Shown here in pieces: positions 1 through 16,736 of a stretch of DNA of 64,000 bases. The notes beneath the pieces are model-generated. The model did no database searches. It saw only the letters and a program-made list of their open reading frames with translations, and had not been told where the DNA came from. Source of the DNA: Candidatus Multivorans sp. (GTDB lineage: Bacteria; Acidobacteriota; Thermoanaerobaculia; Multivoradales; Multivoraceae); the NCBI GenBank assembly GCA_965247095.1, contig OZ251997.1, forward strand, positions 2,595,689 to 2,659,688. The letters are read 5' to 3'. Numbering within the stretch: the stretch's first letter is position 1; each line of letters starts with the position of its first letter. A program made the translations under genes and the position numbers.

Positions 1-184
1 CGAACCCGCCCGAAAACAGGCCGGGCCGGCCGGTCAGTACGACGGCTCTGGCATCGTCTGCGGCACGGTCGAGCATGGCATTGACGGCAGCGATCATGGG
101 CGGTCCGAAGACGTTGGCCTTGCCGTCGTCCAGGGTGACCAGGGCCACGTCGCCAACCTGCTCGTAGGTGGTCGGTTCAATCAT
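1..184 (-). CDS. enoyl-CoA hydratase/isomerase (crotonase) family protein, N-terminal part; gene continues beyond window start
   Basis: Reverse-strand translation from ATG ~184 gives MIEPTTYEQVGDVALVTLDDGKANVFGPPMIAAVNAMLDRAADDARAVVLTGRPGLFSGGF, a typical crotonase N-terminus; no stop before window edge. Confidence 0.7.
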   Translation of the reverse strand, partial: MIEPTTYEQVGDVALVTLDDGKANVFGPPMIAAVNAMLDRAADDARAVVLTGRPGLFSGGF

Positions 185-230
185 GAATCAGCTCCCTTGG
201 TGTCTGCCCCTCGGGTCAGGGGCGCTTCAT

Positions 231-1400
231 TCAGTTTGCCACCTTGATCTCGCGGATCTTCTTGAGCGGGACCGCGGTGATCTTCTCCGTCAGCCGGTAC
301 TCGAGGTCGCCCGGGTAGACCACCCACAGATGATCGAGACCGAGGTCCTTGCTGACCGTGTGCATCGACTTGGTCGTCCGGGGGGCATCCGCGCACTTGA
401 ACTCGAATCCCCAGCGCCTGCCGCCGCGGAGCAGCATGAGGTCCAGTTCCGCGCCCCGTTGGGTGCCCCAGAAGCATGCCTGGCGCGCACCGAACGCGAT
501 CAGGGTCTGTTCCAGGGCGAAGCCCTCCCAGCTTGGACCGTAGACGGGGTGGCGGACGAGGTCGTCCATCGATTCCAGCCCCAGCAGGTGGTGGAGAATG
601 CCGGAATCGCGGAGGTACACCTTGGGCGCCTTGACGACGCGTTTGCCGACGTTCTCGAACCATGGTTGGAGCACCCGGATCATGAACGTCCCGGCCAGCA
701 GGTCGCGGTAGTGGTTCACCGCGTTGACGCTGACACCCATCGAGCGGCTGAGCGCCGACGCGTTCCAGGTCTGCGAGTGGGCGTGCGCCAGCATGGTCCA
801 GAAGCGGCCTAGCGCCTCCGGCGACACCCTCGACCCGAGTCCCGGCACATCGCGCTCCAGGAACGTGCGCGCGAACGACTCCATCCACAACATGCAGGCG
901 GCATCCGACTCCGCCAGGTAGGCCAGTGGGAAGCCGCCGCGCATCCAGAGCCGGTCCTGGTTCTCCGCTCCCACCTCGTCGAGTGAGAAGCCGCTCACGT
1001 CGGCGAACGAGATGCGCCCAGCCAGGGTCTCGGAAACGCCGCGGATCAGGTCCCAGGAGGCGCTGCCCAGGAGCAGGAAGACGGCTTTCCGCGCAGGGTC
1101 GTCGCAGATCGGACGGAGAATCTCGAACAACTCGGGTACGCGCTGAACCTCGTCGATCACGATCAGCCCCTCGCCGCTTCGAAGGAGCCGCTCCGGAGTC
1201 GCGCGGAACGCCTCGCGAACCGCAGCCACCTCCAGGTCGTAGACCGTGGAGGGTCCCGTCCACGCCGCCACGATCTGTTGGGCGAGCGTCGTCTTGCCCA
1301 CCTGCCGAGCCCCCAGGAGAGCGGTGACCGGTGACTGGGAGAGTCTCCAGAGTGTGGCGTCGAGCAGGCGCTGTCGGGCGGTAGATTGTCGCATATTCAC
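231..1400 (-). CDS. AAA+ ATPase with DUF4143 C-terminal domain (COG1373-like ATP-binding protein)
   Basis: 389-aa ORF; Walker A GARQVGKTT, Walker B LIVIDEVQ, typical DUF4143 C-terminal region; 100 nt downstream of, and co-directional with, the GHKL ATPase gene. Confidence 0.8.
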   Translation of the reverse strand: MNMRQSTARQRLLDATLWRLSQSPVTALLGARQVGKTTLAQQIVAAWTGPSTVYDLEVAAVREAFRATPERLLRSGEGLIVIDEVQRVPELFEILRPICDDPARKAVFLLLGSASWDLIRGVSETLAGRISFADVSGFSLDEVGAENQDRLWMRGGFPLAYLAESDAACMLWMESFARTFLERDVPGLGSRVSPEALGRFWTMLAHAHSQTWNASALSRSMGVSVNAVNHYRDLLAGTFMIRVLQPWFENVGKRVVKAPKVYLRDSGILHHLLGLESMDDLVRHPVYGPSWEGFALEQTLIAFGARQACFWGTQRGAELDLMLLRGGRRWGFEFKCADAPRTTKSMHTVSKDLGLDHLWVVYPGDLEYRLTEKITAVPLKKIREIKVAN

Positions 1401-1500
1401 CCTCAGAGGTGAGGTTTACGACAATAAACCGAGTTGGCGGGCTTGTCCAGCGGTGCTCAGGCGGGTGCTTCGGCCTCGTGGAACTCCTTCGCCTTGGGAC

Positions 1501-2952
1501 CTATGTGCGCTTGAGGACCTTCTCGATGATCTCTCTAGCGGCCCGGCGTGACTCGGCAGACTCCGCGATGGCTTGGAACACCTTCCGATACGTGGCAACG
1601 TCCTCGGTTCTGACGTTCGTCAGCCGCGGGCGGCCACGCTGTGCCCGGAAGTGGGTGAGCCTGCGCTCGATGCTCTCTGCTCGGTCGAGCAAGCCCGCAT
1701 CCCACCCGTCTGTTGTGCGAAGTACGTCTCGAATCCGACCTAGCCGAGTAAGGTCGTGTTCAATCAACCGGCGAGCTACTTCGGCAGTCAGGTACCCAGA
1801 TCGCGCAAGCTCGTACGTCTCCTCCGAGTCCGCAATTGCCGCTGCGAACCTGCGCTCGCGCGTTCTCGTTGCTGAGGTGTTTCTGCAGCGCTCCGCCAGT
1901 CGGCGGAAGATCGCTCCCAGGTGGTTCTCCAGATTTCTCGTGTGGGGTCCGGGCTCGAAGTAGTCTCGCCGGCCGTTCGGGACGATCCTGGGGTCCAGAA
2001 TGTGTATCTCCCCTACGGCCCACCTATTGAGGCGGTCCTCCTTGAACATATGGTCGAAGACGCCTTCGCCGCCGACTTGGATGTTCCCGCATCGCGCTCT
2101 GAGTCCTCTGATACCCGCGCTCTTGGGGATTGCTCCGAGGTAAGACGTGTGGGCAAGCCACCCCGCTGCCGCTCGCTCGCGGCTGTCGATCTTGGGCACG
2201 TCGAACACTTCGAGGGCGCTGAAGGCGTCGCTTCGGCCGGCAGAGAACTCAATGCCCTCGGCATGGGGCCTGGTAACGGCATCGTCGCCGTCGATGGAGA
2301 CGTTCATCGCGTACAGCGCATCTCCAACATACTCTTCGACCATCTCGCGGAAGGGAAAGGCGGTTGAGAGAGGCACTGGACAGACCTCCGCGACGTAGCT
2401 GTGAACCCTCTGCCGGTTCAGGACAGAGCCAGCCGCGTAGCGGGCGACGCCACGGACCTCTACTTCGAAGTACTGGTCGGGCTCTTCGTCGGCATCCAGT
2501 TGTTCCACAGTGACGAAGTCACCTATTCGCTGTTCCGTGTCGGCTAGGTCGTGGTTCCTCAGACGGAGGGCGTCCCAAGTGACGCGGACAGGAGGCTGGT
2601 CCGCGCTGGCCCTGGTGGTGAAAGCGACTGCCTCTGCGAAAGCCAGACCAGCCAGGCGACCGATTCCGCGAAATCCCCTATTGCTGGCGGCGCGCTTGGT
2701 GCTTTGGCCGACCGGAATCAACGAGTCGACGGCTTCCTGGAACGTCAGGCCGGGGCCGTAGTCCCGGATGCGGATCTGGGCCTGCCGAGGGTCGAGGTGA
2801 ATCTCGACTCGGCCGGATCCTGGACTTCCTGTAGTCGCGTCCGCTGCGTTCTGGAGATACTCGCGGTAGAGCGTCAGCGGATCGTCGTACATCCCCGACG
2901 TGACCAGCCGAAGAAGGCTGTGGCCGAGCGCTGGTTCGTTGGAGCTGCTCAT
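1501..2952 (-). CDS. GHKL (Bergerat-fold, MORC/Hsp90-like) ATPase, candidate defence-cassette component
   Basis: 483-aa ORF; N-box LYREYLQNAADA, G1 IRDYGPGLTF (DxGxG), G2 GFRGIGRLAGLAFA (GxxGxG); possible RBS GGGGAGAG before ATG; no histidine-kinase DHp domain, MORC-like. Confidence 0.75.
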   Translation of the reverse strand: MSSSNEPALGHSLLRLVTSGMYDDPLTLYREYLQNAADATTGSPGSGRVEIHLDPRQAQIRIRDYGPGLTFQEAVDSLIPVGQSTKRAASNRGFRGIGRLAGLAFAEAVAFTTRASADQPPVRVTWDALRLRNHDLADTEQRIGDFVTVEQLDADEEPDQYFEVEVRGVARYAAGSVLNRQRVHSYVAEVCPVPLSTAFPFREMVEEYVGDALYAMNVSIDGDDAVTRPHAEGIEFSAGRSDAFSALEVFDVPKIDSRERAAAGWLAHTSYLGAIPKSAGIRGLRARCGNIQVGGEGVFDHMFKEDRLNRWAVGEIHILDPRIVPNGRRDYFEPGPHTRNLENHLGAIFRRLAERCRNTSATRTRERRFAAAIADSEETYELARSGYLTAEVARRLIEHDLTRLGRIRDVLRTTDGWDAGLLDRAESIERRLTHFRAQRGRPRLTNVRTEDVATYRKVFQAIAESAESRRAAREIIEKVLKRT

Positions 2953-3061
2953 GCTCTCCCCACTTGGAGACGGCCGTTCAGGTGATGGCTAGGCCGCCGT
3001 TGAAGGGCTAGCCGTTGTACCACAAGCAACGGGCCAGTAGCTGGCAGAGATCGCTTGGAGG

Positions 3062-4702
3062 CTAGCTCGCAGCCAGGACCTTCGTCGCCCGTGAGCGGGT
3101 GGCGGCGAGCGCCTCCTCGTGGCTGAACAGACCGGCGTCCTCCACGAACTCCTCTTCGCTGGGCATGGCCGGATCGGGATTGAGGGACGGGAACAACGGC
3201 AGTACCCGGTCCCGGACAGTCCCGGGAGCATCCTTCGTGTTGAGCGCATGGAAGCGGAGGAGCTGTCGAGTGGTGGCGTCGCGGGCTCGGTCGTTACTGG
3301 CGCGCTGACACAGGGCCCGTAGCTCGCCGTCCCCTCTAGCCTGAGCGAGGAAGGCGATGAACTCCCTTCTCTCCGACTCGGACAGTCGGGCTCGCAGCGT
3401 GTCGTACTCGTCCCGTGCTCCGGACTGCTCGTACTGCTCTCGGTGGAAGATGAGCGCGTGGGGCAACTCCAGTAGCTGCAAGAACTCCTCCTGGTCCCTT
3501 CCATAGGCGCGCTCGAAGAAGCTCGGGTTGCCGCTGACTACGCCACGGGTGGCCTGCAGCATGATCTGGAAGGACCGCAGGTAGTAGCGGTTCCAGCGCC
3601 TTCCCACGTGTGAGCGGTCCTTCAGCGTCACCGGTTGGTAGCGCATCGGGAACGACCAGATGCGAACGCCGAGCTCTTCGTTCAGGCCGATGTTCAGGCG
3701 CATCCGCTCGTACAGGTCCTCCGGGGAGTCCATGAAGTTGTACAGCATGTAGTTCGACAGCGACGTGATGCCGTTGTCAGCCGCCATCCTCACCGCGGTG
3801 GTGTAGATCTTTCGTAGTCCGATGTGGTCGAAGGCGATCCGGAGGGGGCTGATGCAGATAGTGGCCATCTCGCGCAGGTACATTGGGGACTTGACGAGAA
3901 TCCTTGCGTCCACACCCTGGTTGAAGTCGACGCGGCGCTTCACCGGCCGCTGATCGTTCCGCCTCAGCTTGGCTCCCTGCTCGAAACCGAGGTCGCGAAT
4001 CTCGGCGATGACCTCCTTGTACCGGGCGGACGCAGTGATGTTGTTGTCCATGAGCACGAGGTCCTTCTTGGGCCCGTGTCTCGCGTCTACCCCGTTGACG
4101 AGGGCGGCGAGGGGCGGCATTTCGCGCTGCGCACCCTCAAGTTTCGGGACGCCGCAGAAGGAGCACTTCCGTATGCAGCCCCTTGAGGCATAGCCGAAGT
4201 AGGCGTCCCGCACCGGATAGGTGTAGTCGAGCTGCTCCAGGATGGAGTAGTCCGGCACCATCTCCTCGATTGGAGGGCCGTCAAGGTCGTCCGCACCGAA
4301 CTCGAAGTCCTCCGCGCGAAGCTGAAGGGCTCTTGCCGGCGGGCCGTCCAGCAGTCCCGCGATGAAGCGGACCCCCGCCCACCGTGGCTCCTTGAGGAAC
4401 TCCTCGTGCATGAGCGAGGCAGCGATTCCGCCGACGAAGACCCGTTCGGGCTGGTTACCAGCCGATTGAATGGCGAAGTCGATGGTTTCGGCGGTGCGCT
4501 TCCACTCGAAGCTGAAGAGCGTCGTGACGTAGACGCGGTCCCACGGCTCCAGGAAGAGGCCCTTTTCCGACACACCTTTCGCGAGCGTCACCGCGTCGCC
4601 ACGCTGCCGGTGGTAAGCCGCGATCTTCATGAGCCCGAGAGGCGGGTACTTGTTGCGGTAGCCCGGCTCCAGGAGAAGCACGCGCTTCGTCGGCTCCGTC
4701 AT
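3062..4702 (-). CDS. radical SAM enzyme with N-terminal cobalamin-binding-like domain (class B rSAM-like)
   Basis: 546-aa ORF; CX3CX2C motif in YASRGCIRKCSFCGVP; N-terminal Rossmann-like RVLLLEPGYRNKYPPLGLMKIAAYHRQRGDAV typical of B12-binding rSAM enzymes; start overlaps stop of upstream small ORF (ATGA). Confidence 0.8.
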   Translation of the reverse strand: MTEPTKRVLLLEPGYRNKYPPLGLMKIAAYHRQRGDAVTLAKGVSEKGLFLEPWDRVYVTTLFSFEWKRTAETIDFAIQSAGNQPERVFVGGIAASLMHEEFLKEPRWAGVRFIAGLLDGPPARALQLRAEDFEFGADDLDGPPIEEMVPDYSILEQLDYTYPVRDAYFGYASRGCIRKCSFCGVPKLEGAQREMPPLAALVNGVDARHGPKKDLVLMDNNITASARYKEVIAEIRDLGFEQGAKLRRNDQRPVKRRVDFNQGVDARILVKSPMYLREMATICISPLRIAFDHIGLRKIYTTAVRMAADNGITSLSNYMLYNFMDSPEDLYERMRLNIGLNEELGVRIWSFPMRYQPVTLKDRSHVGRRWNRYYLRSFQIMLQATRGVVSGNPSFFERAYGRDQEEFLQLLELPHALIFHREQYEQSGARDEYDTLRARLSESERREFIAFLAQARGDGELRALCQRASNDRARDATTRQLLRFHALNTKDAPGTVRDRVLPLFPSLNPDPAMPSEEEFVEDAGLFSHEEALAATRSRATKVLAAS

Positions 4703-4899
4703 TTGGCCAGCATCCGGGTCGCGACCTTGCGACTCTTCCCGAACTCGAAGTCCACCATCTTCCTCGTTACCGGGTCATTCTGCAGTCGTCGGACAGCGTG
4801 ACCCTGCTCCTGCCACGCGAGGCTGATGCCGAAACCGCTCGAGACGCGCGTTAGCATATCAATGGTGCGCCGCTGGCCTCTCTCGCTCAAGCGCGTCAT
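4699..4899 (-). CDS. small hypothetical protein (66 aa) translationally coupled to the radical SAM gene
   Basis: ORF MTRLSERGQRRTIDMLTRVSSGFGISLAWQEQGHAVRRLQNDPVTRKMVDFEFGKSRKVATRMLAK; stop overlaps rSAM ATG by 4 nt; weak RBS; lies in the AT-richer island. Confidence 0.3.
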   Translation of the reverse strand: MTRLSERGQRRTIDMLTRVSSGFGISLAWQEQGHAVRRLQNDPVTRKMVDFEFGKSRKVATRMLAK

Positions 4900-5032
4900 G
4901 GGCCGGTCTGTCTCGCTCCTCGCCGCGCCAGCGAAGACCGGGCCGCGAGGCCAACTCCAAGATGGTCGAGCTTGTGAGTATTGTCGCATCCAGCTTCGAC
5001 CTCTGCCTCTCGCTTGTGGGACACCAGTCCTA

Positions 5033-7363
5033 CTAAACCGCCTGAGATTCAGCGATATCTTCCGGAAAGTACTTCTCGACCTTCTCAACATACTGGTTGA
5101 CGAAGGCGACCTGGTCCGGGGTCAGGACACCGCGCTCAGGGTGCGCCACGATGTTGCGAATATCGTTGAGTTTCTTGATCCATTGCGTGTTTGCCTTCAT
5201 GTTGTCCCTGTTACTCGCGTCCAGCGATATCACTTCTTTGAATAGCTGCCAATTGCGGTGACATATGTCGATATAGTTTATCAGAAAGAGTTGAGATTCT
5301 TCATTGCCCTCACGTCGCCGCTCTTCCCACCGGGCCATGCATTGCTGGCGGATCGTGAGCGGGATTCCTTCCGTCCACCACTCTGTGCCCTGCGCGCCAT
5401 AGTGTCCCTTCAACGCCACGATGACGTAGTCAAAGAGCCTACGCTGTATCTTTCGCACCTTGGCGCTCGCTTCTTCTGTACCCGCTTCATCGCGGGAATC
5501 CAAGTACTGCTGCAGCCCTGGCGGCCTGAAGCTGGGGATCGTCTGGCCAATATGCGCCTCCAAACCGTAGGCCTGCCGCCGCACGGCTGTCAGGGAAGAG
5601 CCAATGCGCCTAAAGGACTGGATCTCTTGCGGTGATGCGTTCTTCAAGTAGCCGACCAAGACCTGAAGATACGGCCGGATTTCCCCGAAGGTCTCTTCTG
5701 CATTGAAGAGACTGAGGTCCACGCCGTCCGTGCGACGGACATGGTCAGCAATATCTTCAATAACGTGAAACAGAGCCCGAATGCCGTTGTTGGTACACAG
5801 ATATCCACCGGCTCGGTCGCCGAGCTCCCAGTGGCTCGCGAGCCCCGCCGCGAACATGTTGAGGCACTCCGAGAGCACCCATAGGGCCTTCCTGAGGTTC
5901 GCGTTGTAGTCGTCGGTTCTGGCCGTAGACAGGGGGCCCGGCACAACCGCACCTCTAGCGAAGGCTCCCAACAGCTTGGCAACTCTGAGCCCGTCCCGCA
6001 CCGAAGTCTGTGTCAGGCAGCGATAGTGGCTCTTCCTCTTTCCGGTGACGACCAGGCGGTCATGGAGCGGCGAGGTGCTGTCGCGGTTGAGGCGGGAGGC
6101 GATACGCGAGAGTAGGGCCTGAAACGCTTCTTCACGGTCGGAAGAGCCCCAATGAAGGTCAGCGTAAAGCTCGACCAAGAGTCCTGTGCTCACCTTGACC
6201 TGCTTGCTGTTGATATCGATGAAGAGGTTCATCTCCTCCTCGGAAGGTAGGTTTTCATAGGCCAGCACGGACAGGACGGTTGAATCCTTGTTGAATCCCT
6301 CTTGTGCTCGCGCATAGGCGTAGCCATAGAGCCTATGCTGGCCGTCGATGATCCAGGCCGAGGCGTAGTTCGGTGGCAGATAGAGTGTGCCCCAGGCCTC
6401 GTCACCGTAGGTCTGCTTCGCATCGAAACGCATCCGAGTTTTCTTGCGGTTCTTCAAGTTGACAACGATATTTGTCGGAAACCTGCCGCCGCCATTGATG
6501 TATTGTGCGATCTTCTTCAGCCGGCGCGGCTGGAGCATGCGCTGGTATGTTTCCAAATTGTCGATGTCCCGGCTTGCCTTGTGGCCAACATAGGCGATCT
6601 TCAAGAGCTCGCCAGGGCTGATGAGGAAAGTGTAGAACGTCTCGCCGCCCATCCTGCCGCGGGTCGCTACGACTTGTCGGACTAGGCCGGGGATCTTCTG
6701 GCCGCCGAACATGTGCCCCAAGAACTGGTAGCGGGCCGCGCGTTTGAGGTGCTTCACGAGCTTCGCATAGTAGTCGAGTTCCCCGTCCGTGACGACCGCA
6801 ATCTCCGCCTTCTCGCACTTCGCAAGGTCCGCATCGCTCCATGAGACATTTCGTGTGGCGATGATAAATCTGACTTTGAGCCCCGACTGCCGGCCGTAGG
6901 CCTTGCGGACCGACTTGAGCAAGTTGCCCCGGATTGCCGTGATGTTCTCGATCAGCGGCGCCATGCGCTTCGTGCCCGGGGTGCCACGCTGCGTGCACTC
7001 GACGATGATGACGGTTTCGTCGTCCTTGGCGAACACATCGATCTGACGTCCTGGCGGGCCATCTTCGACGGCGATCGTGAACTTGCGGCCTTTGTTCATT
7101 TCATCGAAGCCCATCTGAGCTAGGATGCACCAAACTTCGTCCTCAAGCTGCTCGTCAGCAGGCTTCTCCTGGGCCATTCGCGTTGACTTGGCGTTCTTTC
7201 TGACCGTCCGCCAACCGTTAGCTGCTTCCAGCTTGACCTTTTGAGCGACAAGCTCCTTCGACGAACCCGAGACAGTCTTATAGATATCCGGCTTTTTCCG
7301 GCTCCTGAGCTCGGATGTGATCTCATCGCCGGATAAGAGGGGGTCTAGGTATTGGTCGGTCAT
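5033..7363 (-). CDS. DGQHR-domain (DndB/ParB-like) protein with C-terminal HEPN-like domain; candidate restriction/effector component
   Basis: 776-aa ORF; exact DGQHR motif in AWIIDGQHRLYGYAY (~aa 335); C-terminal NDIRNIVAHPERG carries the HEPN Rx4H signature; N-terminal ~170 aa has D..E-x-(K/Q)-like residues (IDVFAKDDETVIIVECTQ), possibly nuclease-like; clearly lower GC than surrounding genes. Confidence 0.85.
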   Translation of the reverse strand: MTDQYLDPLLSGDEITSELRSRKKPDIYKTVSGSSKELVAQKVKLEAANGWRTVRKNAKSTRMAQEKPADEQLEDEVWCILAQMGFDEMNKGRKFTIAVEDGPPGRQIDVFAKDDETVIIVECTQRGTPGTKRMAPLIENITAIRGNLLKSVRKAYGRQSGLKVRFIIATRNVSWSDADLAKCEKAEIAVVTDGELDYYAKLVKHLKRAARYQFLGHMFGGQKIPGLVRQVVATRGRMGGETFYTFLISPGELLKIAYVGHKASRDIDNLETYQRMLQPRRLKKIAQYINGGGRFPTNIVVNLKNRKKTRMRFDAKQTYGDEAWGTLYLPPNYASAWIIDGQHRLYGYAYARAQEGFNKDSTVLSVLAYENLPSEEEMNLFIDINSKQVKVSTGLLVELYADLHWGSSDREEAFQALLSRIASRLNRDSTSPLHDRLVVTGKRKSHYRCLTQTSVRDGLRVAKLLGAFARGAVVPGPLSTARTDDYNANLRKALWVLSECLNMFAAGLASHWELGDRAGGYLCTNNGIRALFHVIEDIADHVRRTDGVDLSLFNAEETFGEIRPYLQVLVGYLKNASPQEIQSFRRIGSSLTAVRRQAYGLEAHIGQTIPSFRPPGLQQYLDSRDEAGTEEASAKVRKIQRRLFDYVIVALKGHYGAQGTEWWTEGIPLTIRQQCMARWEERRREGNEESQLFLINYIDICHRNWQLFKEVISLDASNRDNMKANTQWIKKLNDIRNIVAHPERGVLTPDQVAFVNQYVEKVEKYFPEDIAESQAV

Positions 7364-7577
7364 GCCGCTGCTCCCTGGTGAGTCGACTATCTCGCATCAT
7401 GTCGCTGGAGGCGACATTCGTGGACCTGTGCCTCAGGGTGTTCCGCGGACGCAGTACCGGAAGGCGAAGGAAGGGCGTTGAAGCTGGACGTGAGTTTCGG
7501 GAGGCTAGCACTTCGGTTGCTGGGAGTCAGATCGGCCCGGAACCTGTCAACGACATTGACACAGCGGGGTTCTGGAT

Positions 7578-8630
7578 TTACTGAGTCGTCTCTGCAGTCT
7601 CGTTGTCGGGCTTGTTGATCCAGACGGCCTGGGGCAGTGGCGTATGCATCGGTTGGCCGCCGACGAATCGTTCGGGGGAGCTTTCCCAGGCGGCGCTCAG
7701 CGTGCGTTGGCGCTGCTCGATCACGGCTTGCGCCCGGCCGTAGTGGACGGTCTCGGGGGTCAGCATGGCGATGCCGGCATGGCGGTGTTCCGTGTTGTAC
7801 CAGGGGAAGAAGGACCTGCAGTAGTCGGTCGCGGCGTCCTGGTTGGGGAAGCGGCTGGGGAAGTCGGGGTGGTACTTGAGGGTCTTGAACTGTGCTTCGG
7901 AGTAGGGGTTGTCGTCGCTGACCCGCGGGCGGCCCAGGGACCGGTTCACGCCGAGGCGGGCGAGCAGTTGGGCGGTACCCTGGCTGGTCATGGGGGCGCC
8001 TCGATCGGAATGCAGGGTCAGGACATGGGGCTTGACGCCGTGCTTGAGGCAGGTCTCCTCGATGAGCCTTTGGGCGAGCGCGGAGTTCTCGCGGTCGGCG
8101 ACCATCCAGCCGACCGCGTAGCGGCTTAGGAGGTCAAGCAGGACGTAGAGGTAGTAGTAGGTCCAGGTCTGCGGTCCGAGCAGCCTGGTGATGTCCCACG
8201 ACCAGACCTGGTTGGGCGCGACAGCGACCAGCTCCGGCTTGGCGTACGACGGATGGACGCGCTGGTTGCGGCGGTCCCTCACGGGGTGGTTCGCTTCGAG
8301 GATGCGGTACATCGTGCGCTCCGAGCACAGGTAGCGGCCCTCGTCGAGCAGGGTGGCCACCACTTCTCCCGGCGAACGATCGACGAAACGCGGCGACGCA
8401 AGCGTGGCCTCGACCCGTTTCCGCTCGATCTGGCTCAGTGCCCGGGCAGGCGTGGGGCGGGGCTGCCGTCGCCCGGGAGCGGGCCTCGCACGACGATAGA
8501 AGGTCGATCGCGATACGCCCAGCGCCCGGCACGCCGGCGCGACGCCGACCTGCCGGGCCAGGGACCTTGCCGCCATCAGCAGTCCTTCCCGTCTTCGAGG
8601 CTGAATCCCAGCAGCCCTGCAACTTTTCCC
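7578..8630 (-). CDS. IS3-family transposase OrfB (DDE integrase core), expressed by -1 frameshift from OrfA
   Basis: rve-type region WSWDITRL…TWTYYYLYVLLDLLSRYAVGW…HSDRGAPMTS…PRVSDDNPYSEAQFKTLKYH; the ORF-track frame extends upstream to 8867 only through overlap with orfA. Confidence 0.8.
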   Translation of the reverse strand, partial: GKSCRAAGIQPRRREGLLMAARSLARQVGVAPACRALGVSRSTFYRRARPAPGRRQPRPTPARALSQIERKRVEATLASPRFVDRSPGEVVATLLDEGRYLCSERTMYRILEANHPVRDRRNQRVHPSYAKPELVAVAPNQVWSWDITRLLGPQTWTYYYLYVLLDLLSRYAVGWMVADRENSALAQRLIEETCLKHGVKPHVLTLHSDRGAPMTSQGTAQLLARLGVNRSLGRPRVSDDNPYSEAQFKTLKYHPDFPSRFPNQDAATDYCRSFFPWYNTEHRHAGIAMLTPETVHYGRAQAVIEQRQRTLSAAWESSPERFVGGQPMHTPLPQAVWINKPDNETAETTQ

Positions 8631-9061
8631 TGGACGTCCAGGATCGTGTGCGCGGCGGCGACTTCCCTCTCGAGACGCTTGACCTTCGCTTCCAGCCGCT
8701 TCACCTTCGGCATCAGAGGGTTGGCCTCGTTCGGCTTGCGGCCCCGCTTCTTCGGCCTCAGACCGGAAAGCGCGCCCTCGCGCCGCGCCTTGCGCCAGTT
8801 GGCCAGATGGGAGCTGTACAGACCCTCTCGCCGCAGCAGCCGACCCACCTCGCCGCGGTGGGTGCATCGGTCCGCTTCCTCCAGAATCCGCAGCCGGTAC
8901 TCCGCCGTGAACTGCCGCCTGGTCGGTCTCGCCAGCACTTCCGGGTCGGGAACCGCCCCGGCGGGCGCCGCGCCGGCCGCGGGGGCCTCGTCGCTACGCT
9001 CCTCAACCCCCGCGGCCGGGAGCTCCGAGCCGCCGCCAAACCTCTGCTCTCGTCTTGACAT
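8576..9061 (-). CDS. IS3-family transposase OrfA
   Basis: MSRREQRFGGG…RQFTAEYRLRILEEA…LANWRKARREG… typical IS3 OrfA with HTH and leucine-zipper region. Confidence 0.8.
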   Translation of the reverse strand: MSRREQRFGGGSELPAAGVEERSDEAPAAGAAPAGAVPDPEVLARPTRRQFTAEYRLRILEEADRCTHRGEVGRLLRREGLYSSHLANWRKARREGALSGLRPKKRGRKPNEANPLMPKVKRLEAKVKRLEREVAAAHTILDVQGKVAGLLGFSLEDGKDC

Positions 9062-9183
9062 TGATCCTCCTTGCCAACGTGTGCCCTCCACTATTCAACG
9101 GGATGGCCGCTGTGTCACGTACGTTGGCAGAGAGGGGCCGTAGGGGCGCTGACGCGTGGTTCGGAACGTGTTGGCTTCCGCCC

Positions 9184-10380
9184 TCAGAGCATTCGCGCGG
9201 CGATCCAGGGCAGGGCGACCGCGGTGCCCAGCACGCTGCCGAGGTTGCTCAGCACGACGACCAGGAGCACGCGTGTAAGGCGGTTGGACCAGAAGCCGCG
9301 CGCGGAACTGAGGCTGTCGGCGAGGTTCTCCATGTCCGCCACCAGGGGCCGGCGGAGCAGCGCCTGGACCAGTCCCGCGACCCAGCCGGCGGCGATCAGC
9401 GGGTTCAAGCTGGTCAGGGGCGCGGCGGCGAAGGCCGAGGCGATGGTCAGCGGATGCCCCAGGGCGATCGCGGCCCCTAGGGCGGACAAGCTGCCGTTGA
9501 TCAGGATCCAGAGGTAGATCGACTCGACCGACCGCTCGCGATCGCCGGTCAGGAAGCCGTAGGCCAGGAGCGCGATGATCGCGATCGGCAACGCCCACTT
9601 GACGATGCGCGGCCAGAGCGGCGGCTCGGGCAGTCGCTCGAGTTCCTCCAGATCGCAGGGCGAGCCCGCGAGGCTCGTGATGCCGGGCACGTGCCCGGCG
9701 CCGACCACGGCCACCGTGCGCGGACCTGCCGACTGGCGCAGCTTCTCGGCCATGTACGCGTCCCGTTCGTCGATCAGGGTGCCCTTGACGCTGGGCAATG
9801 CCTCGGCGAGGGCGGACACCAGGTCGCTCAGGTTGCCGCTGTCGCGGAGCTGCTCGATGTCCTCTTCCTTCAGGTCGTCGCCGACGAAGGCGCTGCCGGC
9901 CAACTGGGTCATCACCTTCGTCCGCTGCCAGAAGCCGAGTGAGGCCCAGGTGCGCTTCAGCGAGATCTGGATGTCGCGGTCGATCAGTTCGAGGCGTGCG
10001 CCGCGTTCCCGGGCCCGGGCGATCGCCTCTCTCATCTCGGCGCCGGGCTCGATGCCGAAGCGCTGGGCGATGCGCCGCTGGAAGGAGTGCATCAGGAACG
10101 AGCTGAGCAGCAGCGCCGCCTTGCCCTCGCGCAGGACCTGGAAGATGTCCAGCTTGCGCCACGACTCCTGGTCCTCCAGGTTGCGGTAGCGGGCCTCGCA
10201 GAGTTCGACGCAGACGGTGTCGGGCTCGAGCGCCTCGATCGCCTCCTTCGTGTCGCGCACGCTCTGCGGCGAGACGTGCGCGGTGCCGACCAGGAAGACC
10301 TCCCGCTCGTCGAGTTCGAGTCGCTGCACCGAGGCGGGCAGGTCGGGGGGCGCCGGTTGGCGCTCGGCTTCGGACATCAT
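9184..10380 (-). CDS. TraB/GumN family protein
   Basis: Start at MMSEAERQ (ATGATG at 10375-10380); TraB-family hallmarks FLVGTAHVSPQSVRD, …VVGAGHVPGI…, C-terminal transmembrane segments. Confidence 0.7.
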   Translation of the reverse strand: MMSEAERQPAPPDLPASVQRLELDEREVFLVGTAHVSPQSVRDTKEAIEALEPDTVCVELCEARYRNLEDQESWRKLDIFQVLREGKAALLLSSFLMHSFQRRIAQRFGIEPGAEMREAIARARERGARLELIDRDIQISLKRTWASLGFWQRTKVMTQLAGSAFVGDDLKEEDIEQLRDSGNLSDLVSALAEALPSVKGTLIDERDAYMAEKLRQSAGPRTVAVVGAGHVPGITSLAGSPCDLEELERLPEPPLWPRIVKWALPIAIIALLAYGFLTGDRERSVESIYLWILINGSLSALGAAIALGHPLTIASAFAAAPLTSLNPLIAAGWVAGLVQALLRRPLVADMENLADSLSSARGFWSNRLTRVLLVVVLSNLGSVLGTAVALPWIAARML

Positions 10381-12078: not shown

Positions 12079-13881
12079 ATGAGCGGTACACCCAAGGACG
12101 CTGAGCGCGGCCCTGCCGACGGTCCAGGTGCTGTGATGCGCCGCCGCCTCGAACAGGTACTGGCCGCCGGCCTGCAGTCGCCCATCTTCCGCTGGGAGAC
12201 CTGGCGGACGTTGTGGCCGCTGCGCCGCCGGGTTCAGGCGGCGCTGCTGGCCGTCCTCGCGGTGGCGGCGTTCTCGGCGTGGCGGGTTCAGCAGAAGGTC
12301 GGACAGGCGCGGCTCGAACTCGGTCTGGCGGAAGCGGCGACTGCCGGCGAGGGATTCGAGCGACTCGCCGAGCGGTCTCCAGGCCTGCTCAGCCTGGCCG
12401 CCCGGCACGCGGCCGGGGAGGGCCGCTGGCGCGAAGTGGCGGCGTTGTACGAGGACCATGCCGAACACCTGCCGCCGGCACTGCTGGCCGCGGCCGAGGT
12501 GGAACTCGGTGTGAATCGCGCCGAGGAAGCTGGAGCAGAATCGGCCGCGGACGAACCGCCGCCGGCGTCTGCGTTCGAGCGGCGTCTGCGGCGGGCACAG
12601 GCGGTCGACGCCTCGGGCGTGCAGCAACTGCTCTTCGACCGGCGGGGCCGGCCATTGGGATCGATCGGCGACGACCGTTCGTTGACGCTGGTAGAGGATC
12701 TGCCGGCCGGCCTGGTGCCGGTCGAGTTGGCGACCCATCTGCTGCCTTCCGCCCTCCAGCCGCCGGGTCTTGCCGCCGCCGGACCGGGGGCGATGAGCAG
12801 GTCCGCCGGCGCGCGAGCCCTGCGGCTGACGATCGACCGGGCCTGGAGCGAGGCGGCCGACACGGCGCTGGGCAGGGAAGAGGGCGCGATCGCGATCGTG
12901 GAGATCCCGTCGGGCGCGGTCCTGGCCGCGGTGAGCAACCGCGGTCGAAGCCGCCGGTGGCGGTCGAACGGCGACAGCGTCCTCGATCCGCGCGAGCCGG
13001 CGTCGATCGCCAAGCTGATCACCACGACGGCGGCGATGCGGGCCGGTCTCGACCCCGACCAGGAGATCGCCGACATGACCTGCCGCGGCTCGGTGCTGAT
13101 GGACGGTCAGCGGCTCTACTGCAGCGCGATCAACGGCCGGCTCCGGGGGCTCTCCGCAGCGATGGCCAGTAGCTGCAACGTCGCCTTCGCCAAGCTCGCG
13201 ATGGATGTCGGCGACCGGGCGCTGGTCGAAGAGTACGAACGCTACGGCTTCGTCATCGGCGGCAGGAGTAGCGAGGCGGTGCCGCGGAACGCCGTCGGTG
13301 TGGTGCATGAGTACCGTCACCCGGGCAAGCAGCTCGGCGATCTCTCGATCGGCCTGGAGGAGGCTTCGATCACACCGTTGGGGGCGGCCCTGTTCGCCGC
13401 CACCCTCTCGGACGGCCGCCGGCGCGAGCCGAGCTTCGTTCTGCAGGCGGACGGACTTCTGGGCATCTCGCCACGGACACCGGTCGGCGACGGTCCGCGC
13501 GAGGGCGTCGAGGTTCTCGACCCGTCCTGGCTGCCGGTGCTGCACGAGTCGATGCGCGCGGTCGTGTCTCCGGGCGGCTCGGCGAACCGGGTGGCGCCGA
13601 AGCGTCTCCGGGTGGCGATGAAGACGGGCACGGCGCGCGATCCGGACAAGCCGTTCCACGTGAACTACGCCGGCTTCTTCCCCTCCGACGAGAGCCAGCC
13701 GCCCCGATACGCCTTCGCGGTCAGGGTCACCGGCCAGCCGACGTCGGCACGGGTTCGCCGCGCCGGGTACGCCGTCACGTTCCGTCTGCTGCGGGCGCTC
13801 GACAGGTTGGTCGGCGAAGAGATCGAGACAGCGTCCCGGGTTCCGCAACGGCTGGCGGCAGCGACCGGAGCGAGCAAGTGA
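12079..13881 (+). CDS. penicillin-binding-protein-like transpeptidase domain protein with unusual N-terminal half
   Basis: 600-aa ORF; SxxK (PASIAKLITT), SxN (SSCNVAF), KTG (MKTGTA) motifs in C-terminal half; N-terminal half has no recognisable dimerisation domain; stop overlaps start of the downstream cytochrome gene. Confidence 0.65.
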   Translation: MSGTPKDAERGPADGPGAVMRRRLEQVLAAGLQSPIFRWETWRTLWPLRRRVQAALLAVLAVAAFSAWRVQQKVGQARLELGLAEAATAGEGFERLAERSPGLLSLAARHAAGEGRWREVAALYEDHAEHLPPALLAAAEVELGVNRAEEAGAESAADEPPPASAFERRLRRAQAVDASGVQQLLFDRRGRPLGSIGDDRSLTLVEDLPAGLVPVELATHLLPSALQPPGLAAAGPGAMSRSAGARALRLTIDRAWSEAADTALGREEGAIAIVEIPSGAVLAAVSNRGRSRRWRSNGDSVLDPREPASIAKLITTTAAMRAGLDPDQEIADMTCRGSVLMDGQRLYCSAINGRLRGLSAAMASSCNVAFAKLAMDVGDRALVEEYERYGFVIGGRSSEAVPRNAVGVVHEYRHPGKQLGDLSIGLEEASITPLGAALFAATLSDGRRREPSFVLQADGLLGISPRTPVGDGPREGVEVLDPSWLPVLHESMRAVVSPGGSANRVAPKRLRVAMKTGTARDPDKPFHVNYAGFFPSDESQPPRYAFAVRVTGQPTSARVRRAGYAVTFRLLRALDRLVGEEIETASRVPQRLAAATGASK

Positions 13882-16736
13882 CAGCGAGCGCGGGCGGCGC
13901 AAAACCGCCCGCACGCCGGCGCTACCGACCGGCGATCGGCCCCAGGCTGAAACCGCTCCTGTGGGTGGTCTTCGGACTGTTCGCTCTGCTGGCGGTGAAC
14001 TCGTTCTACCTCTCCGGCGTTCGCGTTGCCGAGGCGGCAACCGGCGCGACCTACCAGAACTGGTTCTACATCTCGATGTTTCTGCTTCACTTGGCGGTGG
14101 GGGGATTGTTCGTGGCGCCGGTGATCTGGTTCGGTCTGGCGCACATGCGGAACGCGCGCAATCGACCCAACCGGCGCGCGGTGAAGGTGGGGTATGCGCT
14201 GTTCGGGACGGCGCTCGTGCTCCTTCTGAGCGGCATCGTGCTGACGCGGATCGAGGGTGTGATCACGGTGAACGACCCGGCGGTCCGCGGCGTGGCCTAC
14301 TGGCTGCACGTCCTGGCGCCCCTGGTAGCGGCCTGGCTGTTCGTGCTGCACCGGCTCGCCGGCAAGCGAATCAACTGGCGGATCGGTGCGCGCGTCGCGG
14401 CCGCCGCCGTGGTTCTGGTCGGCGTGGCGCTGGTGCTGCAGTTCCAGGATCCGCGGGCGTGGAACGTGGAAGGTCCGGAGTCGGGAGAGCAGTACTTCTT
14501 CCCGGCCCTGGCGCGCACCGCGAGCGGCGGGTTCATCCCCGAGCGGGTGTTGATGAACGACGCCTACTGCGTGGACTGCCATGCCGACATCCACGCTCGC
14601 TGGACCTACAGCGCCCACCGCTTCAGCTCCTTCAACAACCCCGCCTACAGTTTCTCCGTCCAGGAGACCCGCGACAAGGCGTACGAGCGTTCGGGCGACG
14701 TGCAGGCGTCCCGCTTCTGCGCCGGCTGCCACGATCCGGTGGTGTTCTTCTCGGGCGCCTTCGACGACCCGGAGTTCGACGTCGAGCAGCCGGCCGCGCA
14801 CGCCGGCATCACCTGCACGTCCTGCCACGCGATTACGCACATCAACAGTCCCCGCGGCAACGCCGACTACACGATCGAGGAGCCCCAGCACTACCCGTTT
14901 GCCTTCAGCGACTCAGGGTTCCTCAAGTTCGTCAACCATCAACTGGTCAAGGCGAAACCGGAACTGCACAAACGGACCTTCCTCAAGCCCCTGCACACGA
15001 CGGCGGAGTTCTGCGGCGCCTGCCACAAGGTCCACCTGCCCGAGGAGTTGAATCACTACAAGTTCCTGCGCGGCCAGAACCACTACGACTCGCACCTTCT
15101 CTCCGGCGTCTCGGGCCACGGCGTGGCGAGCTTCTACTACCCGCCCGAGGCCGAGCCGAACTGCAACGGCTGCCACATGGACCTGCTGCCGTCGGACGAC
15201 TTCGGTTCTCGCCGCCACCCGGAGAGCGACCAGCCTGATGTCACCCAGGTTCACGATCACCTGTTCCCGTCCGCGAACACCGGCATCCCCCATCTGCTCG
15301 ACTTCCCGGACTGGGTGATCGAGGCCCACCGCGAGTTCAACGAGGGCGCCGTCGACGTGGACATCTTCGGCGTCAAGCCGGGCGGCGCGATCGAGGACGA
15401 GCTGATCGCGCCGGTGCGCCCCGAGATACCGGCCCTCGAGGCGGGCGAGGACTATCTGCTGGAGGTCGTTGTACGCACCGTTGCCTTGGGGCATCACCTG
15501 ACCCAGGGCACCGTTGACTCCAACCAGCTCTGGCTGGACATCGCGGTGCGCGACGACAGCGGCCGGCTGGTGGGGCGGAGCGGCGGTTTGGGCGAGGGCA
15601 ACCGGGTCGACCCCTGGTCGCACTTCATCAACGTCTACATGCTCGACCGCGAGGGCGCGCGGATCGATCGCCGCAACGCCGAGGACATCTTCGTGCCGCT
15701 GTACGACCATCAGATCCCGCCGGGGGCGGGCGACGTGGTCCACTACCGGATGGAAGTACCGCCAGGGGCGGCCACCGGCAGCCTGACGGTCGAGGCCGCG
15801 CTCCGCTACCGCAAGTTCGACACGACGTACCTGCGCTACATCTACGGCGAGGACACGGTGAACGAACTGCCGATTCTCGACCTGGCCCGGGACACGGTGA
15901 CCTTCCCGGTGGCGGGCGCCTCCGCCCCTGGGCACGCGGGCGTCTCGCCCGCATCCGGTCCGGAGGTCCGCCAACCCGCCAAGCCTCTCTGGCAGCGCTG
16001 GAACGACTACGGCATCGGCCTGCTGCGCAAGGGCGGCACCGGTCGCGGCGAACTGCGGCAGGCGATCGAAGCCTTCACCCGGGTCGAGGAGTTGGGCCGT
16101 CCCGACGGACCGCTCAACCTCGCCCGCGTCTACCTGGCGCAGGGCACCGTCACCGACGACGCGATCGCGGCGCTCGAGCGGGCCGCCACCTTCGACCCGG
16201 CGGCGCCGGCGTGGTCGGTGGCCTGGTTCACCGGGCTGGTCAACTTCCAGAACGGCGCCGTCGACGAGGCGATCGCCAACTTCCGCTCGATCCTCGACGC
16301 CGACAGCGAGGAGATGCGACGCCGCGGCTTCGACTTCAGCCGCGACGTGCGGCTGCAGAACCAGCTCGGTCTGGCTCTGTTCGAGCGCGCCAAGCGCGAG
16401 CGGGGCCCTGCCCGCGCCGAGGCGCGCGCGGCGCGGCTCAACGAGGCGCGGGAGTCGTTCGAGAGCGCTCTGGTCATCGACCCGGAGAACGTGACCGCCC
16501 ACTACAACCTGGGTCTGATCTACGGCCAGCTTGGCGATCGCGAGGGCGCCGCCCGGCACCAGGAACTTCATGCGAAGTACAAGCCTGACGACAACGCCCG
16601 GGACCGGGCGATCGCCACGGCCAGACGCGCCGACGCGGCGGCCGATCACGCGGCGGAGGCGATCGTGATCTACGACCTGCACCGGCCCGAGCGCTTCGAA
16701 GGCGACCGGGCCGGGGTCGCCGGAGCGGGCGGTTGA
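13878..16736 (+). CDS. membrane-anchored multiheme cytochrome c (5 CxxCH) fused to C-terminal TPR repeats
   Basis: 952-aa ORF; N-terminal transmembrane helices; CVDCH, CAGCH, CTSCH, CGACH, CNGCH; C-terminal TPR-like repeats; contains one in-frame REP-like repeat copy. Confidence 0.8.
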   Translation: MTASAGGAKPPARRRYRPAIGPRLKPLLWVVFGLFALLAVNSFYLSGVRVAEAATGATYQNWFYISMFLLHLAVGGLFVAPVIWFGLAHMRNARNRPNRRAVKVGYALFGTALVLLLSGIVLTRIEGVITVNDPAVRGVAYWLHVLAPLVAAWLFVLHRLAGKRINWRIGARVAAAAVVLVGVALVLQFQDPRAWNVEGPESGEQYFFPALARTASGGFIPERVLMNDAYCVDCHADIHARWTYSAHRFSSFNNPAYSFSVQETRDKAYERSGDVQASRFCAGCHDPVVFFSGAFDDPEFDVEQPAAHAGITCTSCHAITHINSPRGNADYTIEEPQHYPFAFSDSGFLKFVNHQLVKAKPELHKRTFLKPLHTTAEFCGACHKVHLPEELNHYKFLRGQNHYDSHLLSGVSGHGVASFYYPPEAEPNCNGCHMDLLPSDDFGSRRHPESDQPDVTQVHDHLFPSANTGIPHLLDFPDWVIEAHREFNEGAVDVDIFGVKPGGAIEDELIAPVRPEIPALEAGEDYLLEVVVRTVALGHHLTQGTVDSNQLWLDIAVRDDSGRLVGRSGGLGEGNRVDPWSHFINVYMLDREGARIDRRNAEDIFVPLYDHQIPPGAGDVVHYRMEVPPGAATGSLTVEAALRYRKFDTTYLRYIYGEDTVNELPILDLARDTVTFPVAGASAPGHAGVSPASGPEVRQPAKPLWQRWNDYGIGLLRKGGTGRGELRQAIEAFTRVEELGRPDGPLNLARVYLAQGTVTDDAIAALERAATFDPAAPAWSVAWFTGLVNFQNGAVDEAIANFRSILDADSEEMRRRGFDFSRDVRLQNQLGLALFERAKRERGPARAEARAARLNEARESFESALVIDPENVTAHYNLGLIYGQLGDREGAARHQELHAKYKPDDNARDRAIATARRADAAADHAAEAIVIYDLHRPERFEGDRAGVAGAGG
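15927..15958 (+). repeat. REP/MITE-like hairpin repeat copy inside the cytochrome CDS (in frame)
   Basis: CCTGGGCACGCGGGCGTCTCGCCCGCATCCGG, encoding …[13 protein letters not shown]…; same core GCGGGCGTCTCGCCCGC as the intergenic copies. Confidence 0.7.

Follow-up and report, generated by a model that had tools for sequence, protein, structure and literature searches.

What does a protein that joins a restriction-like fold to a DGQHR ParB-like domain and a HEPN domain do for its host, and which of its neighbours does it work with? The question is raised by a 64,000-nucleotide stretch of the genome of Candidatus Multivorans sp. (assembly GCA_965247095.1, contig OZ251997.1, positions 2,595,689 to 2,659,688), hereafter called the window, where a gene that we name gene A is followed by two genes on the same strand, gene B for a radical-SAM enzyme and gene C for a GHKL ATPase. 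In our reading gene A encodes, on balance probably, the nuclease or effector subunit of a horizontally mobile defence module that resembles restriction-modification (R-M) systems, a view drawn from comparing sequences and gene neighbourhoods. The evidence that carries it is the way in which the partners of gene A replace one another, and it is presented below after the protein itself.

Gene A is a real and widespread three-domain protein, composed of a restriction endonuclease (REase) fold, a DndB-type ParB-like domain and a HEPN domain, with motifs that are conserved far beyond chance. Its open reading frame (ORF), of 776 codons on the minus strand, starts with ATG and is preceded, about 9 nt upstream, by a GGGAG-like ribosome-binding site. 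The middle domain (residues 233-538) matches the DGQHR model TIGR03187 with 187.8 bits (E 3.2e-55, cutoff 58.85) and the Pfam DndB family PF14072 with 47.8 bits (cutoff 29.1), and PF14072 is also matched by 56/56 diverse homologues. DGQHR domains have been described by three signatures: the DGQHR pentapeptide, a QR pair and FxxxN (PMC4619093). The pentapeptide of gene A, read from the DNA, stands in AWIIDGQHRLYG (residues 336-347), and in a family alignment of 127 diverse full-length relatives (28-55% identity) D340-R344, Q274/R275 and F381 are 100% conserved and N385 99%. Scores against the equivalog models are far under the respective cutoffs (DpdB NF041060, 61.7 vs 300 bits; DndB TIGR03233, 12.7 vs 328; "DGQHR protein 1", 86.5 vs 450), and gene A is therefore a member of the domain family and not of any of these orthologous groups. 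DndB proper was rejected on its score and on the neighbouring genes, which are radical-SAM, GHKL, AAA_14/DUF4143 and IS3 genes and include no Dnd genes; DpdB proper was rejected on its score and on the operon, which is without a TGT-like gene. The PADLOC model for DpdB gives 62.8 bits, a match at the level of the domain only. The DUF262 motif DGQQR and a match to GmrSD_N were looked for in gene A and not found, the motif being DGQHR, and only 2/56 relatives match GmrSD_N weakly. Profile searches found no His-Me, HNH or DUF1524 domain in gene A either, its all-helical C-terminus being assigned to the HEPN domains instead. The family profile found no relative with a solved structure among the PDB sequences; predicted structures comprised two domain models of gene A.

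The N-terminal domain has a PD-(D/E)xK-like fold: the alpha-beta-beta-beta-alpha-beta core of this fold is present, and the domain resembles the nuclease domains of Can2 and Card1. At the motif positions the family holds D109 in 121/127 relatives, E122 in 110/127 and K124 in 90/127. In the 36-member close clade to which the window copy belongs, D109, E122 and the Rx4H motif of the HEPN domain are invariant, as is K113, and position 124 is T in 35/36 members. K or R at position 113 accompanies T124 in 12/16 representatives, against 20/90 of those with K124, counts that are not phylogenetically independent. This pattern would be compatible with a migration of the catalytic lysine or with a loss of DNase activity, and because K124 is replaced by T, REase activity is uncertain in the window's clade.

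At the other end of the protein, the Rx4H motif (R736-NIVA-H741) is intact, lying within NDIRNIVAH (residues 733-741, read from the DNA); family-wide, R is found in 105/127 relatives and H in 101/127. This region resembles Csm6 and AbiF, and we assign it with moderate confidence to the HEPN domains of the Swt1/Abi2 clade. Homologue searches with either terminal domain by itself gave nothing beyond fragments of this family. An earlier note, made from the letters of the window alone, had read the middle domain as DndB-type DGQHR ParB-like, NDIRNIVAH as the Rx4H motif of a HEPN domain, and the acidic N-terminal region as possibly PD-(D/E)xK-like; the profile scores given above agree with the first reading, the second agrees with our assignment, and the fold expected in the third is there, its acidic residues being those of D109...E122-C-T124.

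The architecture that the same note described is not new. In the first homologue search, proteins close to 776 aa in length and 67-76% identical to gene A numbered more than 2,000; of the 50%-identity cluster representatives, 2,588 match with E<=1e-3 and 486 still do so with E<=1e-30, for the most part end to end, and when one genome per species was scanned from pattern seeds, 409 stretches that encode the family came up. The taxa include Proteobacteria, Acidobacteriota, Chloroflexota, Desulfobacterota, Spirochaetia and archaea (Methanoperedens, Methanoregula, Woesearchaeota). The three-domain architecture is common and old, and databases carry it under the names "DGQHR domain-containing protein" or "DndB". 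The fusion of ParB-like and HEPN domains is not new, having been catalogued in 2013 and being abundant in databases: Table 1 of Anantharaman et al. 2013 lists among the Swt1-like HEPN fusions "ParB (Saro_3948), mostly active" of Novosphingobium aromaticivorans, and operons that encode the HEPN protein MAE_28990 also encode a ParB nuclease and a DNA methylase (PMC3710099), and Makarova et al. 2013 noted ParB-HEPN fusions among DndB-like proteins (PMC3632139). Since plasmid pNL1 of N. aromaticivorans DSM 12444 encodes a full-length homologue of gene A with 62% identity, with radical-SAM and GHKL genes adjoining it, Saro_3948 is very probably a member of the gene A family; the supplement of PMC3710099 is without Saro_3948. 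A full-length homologue was not found in isolated phage genomes, nor an entry identical to the window protein in the contig index searched. Seven related loci (L022, L023, L025, L037, L041, L059, L066) have gene A broken up into two or three ORFs, which may be real pseudogenes, as expected if the nuclease is costly, or equally frameshift errors of metagenome-assembled genomes (MAGs), since L037 and L059 show a broken gene B as well.

The neighbours of gene A were compared in 79 genome loci and pNL1; this sample and the one anchored on gene B described below were each drawn from the best 80 loci of a pattern-seeded scan and are not a census, and many of them are MAG contigs. Adjoining gene A were radical-SAM and/or GHKL genes in 61 loci, a D12 (Dam-like) DNA methyltransferase (MTase) in 12, an MT-A70 MTase in four and neither kind in three; no locus had both kinds. 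Genes B and C are both present in 54 of the 61 radical-SAM/GHKL-linked loci, and seven have one only. Gene B adjoins gene A in most loci where A is at least 40% identical to the window copy. In MTase-linked loci A is 31-39% identical to the window protein and the genes often overlap, and on viral or prophage contigs 7/7 full-length homologues abut a D12 MTase. In a tree of gene A, which is a quick neighbour-joining distance tree with no support values, the MTase-linked forms make up deep and diverse branches and the radical-SAM-linked forms one large derived clade. In between the Dam-linked forms of archaea sits a radical-SAM-linked archaeal pair (L068 and L069), a placement that suggests that partners were switched more than once. 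Within the window's clade gene A is hardly ever found without B-C, and B-C are often found without A; this asymmetry is as expected of a dangerous nuclease and a harmless protective module.

Among these loci the genes are arranged as A>B>C, as B>C>A, or with A pointing convergently towards B>C. In 26 of the A-anchored loci gene B has directly upstream of it a short, DpdB-like DGQHR gene of about 345 aa; in the A>B>C arrangement of the window no such gene is present, and gene A fills its slot. L068 (10360-12902) and L069 (5379-7871), which come from Methanoregula and a second archaeal MAG, show an archaeal variant: after gene A come a B12-binding/radical-SAM-like protein that is much shorter than gene B (about 360 aa) and a DGQHR protein of 472-487 aa, the latter with a weak N-terminal match to the TBP-TOTE domain of conflict systems. 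Another pair, PIN_8 (about 620-640 aa) with a second HATPase_c_3 GHKL protein (about 512-533 aa), recurs beside A/B/C in unrelated genomes (L002 6328-9775; L082, which is pNL1, 13850-16301; L113 14395-16334) and may be a separate or a cooperating system.

Gene B carries the radical-SAM motif C176-x3-C180-x2-C183, which is invariant (20-55 orthologues). PF04055 (Radical_SAM) matches 19/20 orthologues and a B12-binding model 3/20, all of these matches being sub-threshold or weak; the window copy is below the Radical_SAM threshold (19.3 vs 29.5). The gene B profile gave weak matches to radical-SAM cores only in the PDB, and no model of PADLOC-DB v2 matches the gene. QueE and viperin were ruled out, there being no family match, and a methylthiotransferase (MiaB/RimO) was rejected because the match is confined to the CxxxCxxC segment and none of the remaining cysteines is conserved at >=93%. 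Near the C-terminus of gene B (the 3062-3170 region of the window, minus strand) the orthologues share an acidic peptide of consensus PEDExVEDAGL, which in the window reads EEFVEDAGLF and on which a partner, for instance the Hsp90-like ATPase, may dock.

In gene C the GHKL motifs I-III are invariant (E31/N35/D38; D64-x-G66-x-G68; G93-x-x-G96-x-G98). Its profile matches the N-domains of HtpG/Hsp90 in the PDB (E 3.9e-13), and HATPase_c_3 is above cutoff in its orthologues. The window copies of genes B and C reach no curated family cutoff, and the PADLOC matches of gene C are very weak. In PADLOC-DB v2 there was no system with all components matched, and gene A was matched only at the domain level, to DpdB/DndB.

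A scan anchored on gene B (metagenome contigs, loci L115-L194; examples are L118 6449-7984, L144 3939-5180 and L120 12858-14333) gives the reciprocal view. Of 48 loci in which the sequence reaches far enough downstream, 45 have gene C after B, the short DGQHR/DndB-like gene abuts B upstream in about 30/47, and the long gene A is present in 4/80. In the 27 loci that span 11 kb or more, the partners of B-C are a ParB_N-like protein with an SNF2 helicase in 16-17, a HerA-like ATPase in four, long A in one and none of these in five; SNF2 is scarce in A-anchored loci, where it is found in 4/59. Two more conserved neighbours of about 300 and 230 aa, without a Pfam match, are also seen around gene B. 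Judged from these neighbourhoods, two portable units recombine: gene A, which combines with Dam, MT-A70 or the radical-SAM-GHKL pair, and the radical-SAM-GHKL pair, with or without the DpdB-like DGQHR gene, which combines with A, with ParB_N-like and SNF2 proteins, or with HerA.

Table 1. Position of genes A, B and C, of the domains of gene A and of the A-B spacer in the window.
Feature	Position (nt)	Strand	Remark
Gene A, 776-aa REase-fold / DGQHR ParB-like / HEPN protein	5033..7363	-	ORF and translation; >2,000 full-length homologues
Gene A residues 1-228, N-terminal PD-(D/E)xK domain	6680..7363	-	motif D109...E122-C-T124 at 6992-7039
Gene A residues 233-538, DGQHR (DndB/DpdB-type ParB-like) domain	5750..6667	-	DGQHR at 6332-6346
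Gene A residues 540-776, helical linker and Swt1/AbiF-type HEPN	5036..5746	-	
Gene A HEPN core, about residues 640-751	5111-5446	-	Rx4H R736-H741 (RNIVAH) at 5141-5158
A-B spacer, 330 nt	4703..5032	-	unusually long; about 100-120 nt typical elsewhere
Gene B, 546-aa radical-SAM enzyme with B12-binding-like N-terminal domain	3062..4702	-	conserved partner of gene A
Gene C, 483-aa GHKL (Hsp90/MORC-like) ATPase	1501..2952	-	directly downstream of gene B

The distribution of partners suggests how the module could work. Because the MTase and the radical-SAM-GHKL pair share the same slot beside gene A and never co-occur, B-C most likely supply self-protection, plausibly as a modification of the DNA. 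A precedent is DndI, a DUF262 NTPase joined to a nuclease, which cuts unmodified DNA and comes off phosphorothioate-marked self DNA through modification-stimulated ATP hydrolysis (PMC11662687). The ParB-like domain of gene A would likewise be a nucleotide-dependent DNA-binding switch that reads the state of the DNA, as in DndI, SspE and GmrSD, and where the self mark is missing it would license the REase domain to cut. The HEPN domain would possibly cut RNA as a second, abortive layer, or serve dimerisation. The radical-SAM/GHKL pair, taking the slot of the MTase, would put the self mark on DNA or keep it there, or would hold gene A in check in some other way. Since gene A sits in a radical-SAM/GHKL module and its distant members sit with MTases, we consider the system R-M-like, mechanistically nearest to DndI, and not modification-dependent.

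Several points weigh against this proposal. Every functional step in it comes from comparative genomics, and the putative role of gene B in DNA modification comes from gene-neighbourhood substitution only; gene B matches no characterised radical-SAM family above threshold, and no radical-SAM enzyme is known to us that places an epigenetic mark on DNA. With T at the position of the canonical K124, the DNase of the window's clade may be inactive or rewired. Support for the HEPN domain is moderate: the window protein stays under the gathering score of Pfam, and Foldseek, a check that the earlier note had recommended for this region, found no match.

The proposal can be taken further, and here we are tentative. 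The radical-SAM enzyme and the Hsp90/MORC-like ATPase, often together with the DpdB-like DGQHR ATPase, could possibly write a new DNA mark by radical chemistry, for which gene A, the ParB_N-like and SNF2 proteins and the HerA-like ATPase would be interchangeable readers, forming a new class of modification-restriction systems.

Four other explanations were weighed, taken here in decreasing order of probability. The first makes gene A an accessory of the modification machinery in the manner of DpdB or DndB, its DGQHR ATPase loading or regulating the radical-SAM enzyme and its REase and HEPN domains being degenerate or secondary. For this speaks DpdB itself, a DGQHR ATPase that is needed for the insertion of preQ0 into DNA by DpdA (as summarised in PMC12839542), together with the short DpdB-like gene found directly upstream of gene B in both samples, the occupation of that slot by gene A in the window and the loss of K124 in its clade. 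Degenerate domains fit poorly with the invariance of Rx4H, D109 and E122 in that same clade, and many loci hold both the short DGQHR gene and the long gene A, so that the two are not simple equivalents. Moreover, this long protein is also found with ordinary MTases, enzymes that require no loader, it also occurs in B>C>A and convergent orders, and B/C are usually without A; we therefore regard this explanation as unlikely.

ParB-family domains bind NTPs, and a second explanation builds on this property: B/C would be a sensor and signal generator, or would make an antiviral nucleotide by radical-SAM chemistry on an NTP, as viperins do, and the ParB-like domain of gene A would be the receptor that switches on the DNase and the HEPN RNase, resulting in abortive infection. 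The likeness of the REase domain to Can2/Card1 and of the HEPN domain to Csm6/AbiF, both typical of ligand-activated effectors, agrees with it, as do the radical-SAM defence enzymes that act on nucleotides (pVips; Ophion). Such a scheme is improbable given that gene B is not viperin-like and has no family match, that DNA MTases replacing B/C in the same genomic slot would be hard to explain, and that B/C otherwise associate with proteins that track along DNA (SNF2, ParB_N-like, HerA).

The earlier note had compared gene A with GmrSD and SspE, and a third explanation follows that comparison fully: gene A would be a self-contained Type IV enzyme of the GmrSD/SspE/BrxU kind that senses modified foreign nucleic acid with its DGQHR domain and thereby sets off cleavage by the HEPN and REase domains, its neighbours being incidental. 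The likeness of a ParB-like NTPase joined to a nuclease is reasonable and can be retained, the architectures being analogous, DGQHR and DUF262 being related ParB/Srx domains (PMC4619093) and a few members of the family reaching GmrSD_N weakly. The self-contained character has to be dropped in favour of a radical-SAM/GHKL or MTase module, because 77/80 loci have one of these partners beside gene A and the partner tracks the phylogeny of A. A modification-dependent nuclease beside Dam or MT-A70 genes, often overlapping them, would be self-destructive unless the mark were ignored, and gene A has neither the DGQQR motif of DUF262 nor a His-Me/DUF1524 domain; a Type IV enzyme is hardly to be expected here. 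The last explanation, a module for post-segregational killing or for plasmid and integrative and conjugative element (ICE) conflicts that stabilises mobile elements and is not anti-phage immunity, has in its favour the occurrence on conjugative plasmid pNL1 and in an ICE and the part of ParB/Srx nucleases in conflicts among conjugative plasmids (Maindola 2014, as cited in PMC10853773), and is very improbable as an alternative, most loci being chromosomal islands and R-M modules being able to do both, so that it is compatible with the R-M-like reading.

The R-M-like reading describes a horizontally mobile module, and the window bears traces of exchange at gene A. Positions 1-4691 are 91-94% identical in nucleotides to two loci of Ca. 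Multivorans, an acidobacterium (L012 and L050), and the flanks together with genes B, C and a further gene labelled D are 89-95% identical to them, the proteins of B, C and D sharing 90-95% of their amino acids; gene A is identical in about 70-72% of nucleotides and 65-67% of protein residues. When window positions 4692-9185 were compared with L012 (5751-10447) and L050, positions 4692-5060 had no match in either locus, the A-B spacer of Table 1 being unique to the window. In the window another allele has apparently taken the place of gene A, one breakpoint lying at the start of gene B, and the spacer marks the junction. Across loci, the identities of A and of B to the window copies are discordant, which argues that A and B/C would communicate through a substrate and not through a tightly co-evolving interface. 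GC content is about 60% at about 4-8 kb of the window, against 65-72% in the flanks. Directly upstream of gene A lies an IS3-family transposase (7578-8867, minus strand, 429-aa ORF), an element that is absent from L012 and L050. The N-terminal 90 or so residues of this ORF are rich in Ala, Gly and Arg and without a model match; probably its start was annotated too far upstream, or orfA and orfB were fused by the ORF caller. A 130-aa ORF in the A-B spacer (4699-5091) was treated as a spurious high-GC ORF, and a scan for promoters and terminators around the operon gave nothing informative.

Directly downstream of gene C, a 389-aa ATPase with AAA_14 and DUF4143 domains (231-1400, minus strand) strongly matches the PADLOC candidate single-gene system PDC-S01 (267 bits); since it is kept beside the operon only in Ca. 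Multivorans loci, this gene probably stands on its own within a small defence island. Elsewhere, defence-type neighbours include patatin, FitA/PIN, HicA, ThsB_TIR with a caspase, and the PIN_8-GHKL pair. The module is found in mobile settings, namely in an Algicella ICE, with traG on one side and trb genes on the other, and on the conjugative plasmid pNL1; most loci, the window included, are chromosomal islands between housekeeping genes.

Taken alone, gene A would be an ordinary if elaborate ParB-nuclease defence protein, and the interest lies in its partners. It was such reciprocal swapping of partners that led comparative genomics earlier to the Dnd, Dpd and BREX modification systems, and here it puts forward an uncharacterised radical-SAM family as a candidate for the modification of DNA; if this were true, the enzyme would be to radical-SAM chemistry what Dam is to methylation, Dnd to phosphorothioation or Dpd to deazaguanine insertion. 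A direct test is possible, because the cultured strain N. aromaticivorans DSM 12444 carries the complete system on pNL1, as genes SARO_RS17520-17535. Were it wrong, an undescribed, widespread and mobile module of three or four genes would still be found in bacteria, archaea and prophages. A literature search that included HEPN, MORC, Dnd, BREX and modularity networks retrieved no description of a system of DGQHR, radical-SAM and GHKL proteins, nor of the wider family centred on radical-SAM and GHKL, an absence that is not proof.

Among known systems, DndI, SspE, GmrSD and BrxU are similar to gene A in that a ParB/Srx NTPase is fused to a nuclease and is genetically coupled to a DNA-modification module. 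The nuclease of DndI is constitutive and is kept off self DNA by modification (PMC11662687), the logic that we propose for gene A. Gene A differs from these proteins in its NTPase, which is of the DGQHR/DndB type and not of the DUF262 (DGQQR) type, and in having PD-(D/E)xK and HEPN domains in place of a His-Me finger; its partners are radical-SAM and GHKL or Dam/MT-A70 proteins, whereas those of DndI and SspE are the Dnd and Ssp phosphorothioation genes. DpdB and DndB belong to the same domain family and also act alongside a DNA-modifying enzyme, but gene A has the additional REase and HEPN domains, and neither dpdA/dpdC nor dndCDE is nearby. The theme of ParB, HEPN and methylase represented by Saro_3948 and MAE_28990 matches the MTase-linked branch of gene A, and the table entry on Saro_3948 (PMC3710099) mentions neither an N-terminal REase domain nor radical-SAM/GHKL partners. 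Compared with classical Type II/IIS R-M enzymes (FokI, N.BspD6I) and with Can2/Card1, gene A is without a recognisable sequence-recognition domain and carries the ParB-like and HEPN domains in addition; compared with classical R-M systems, the window's clade has the MTase replaced by enzymes without a methyltransferase fold.

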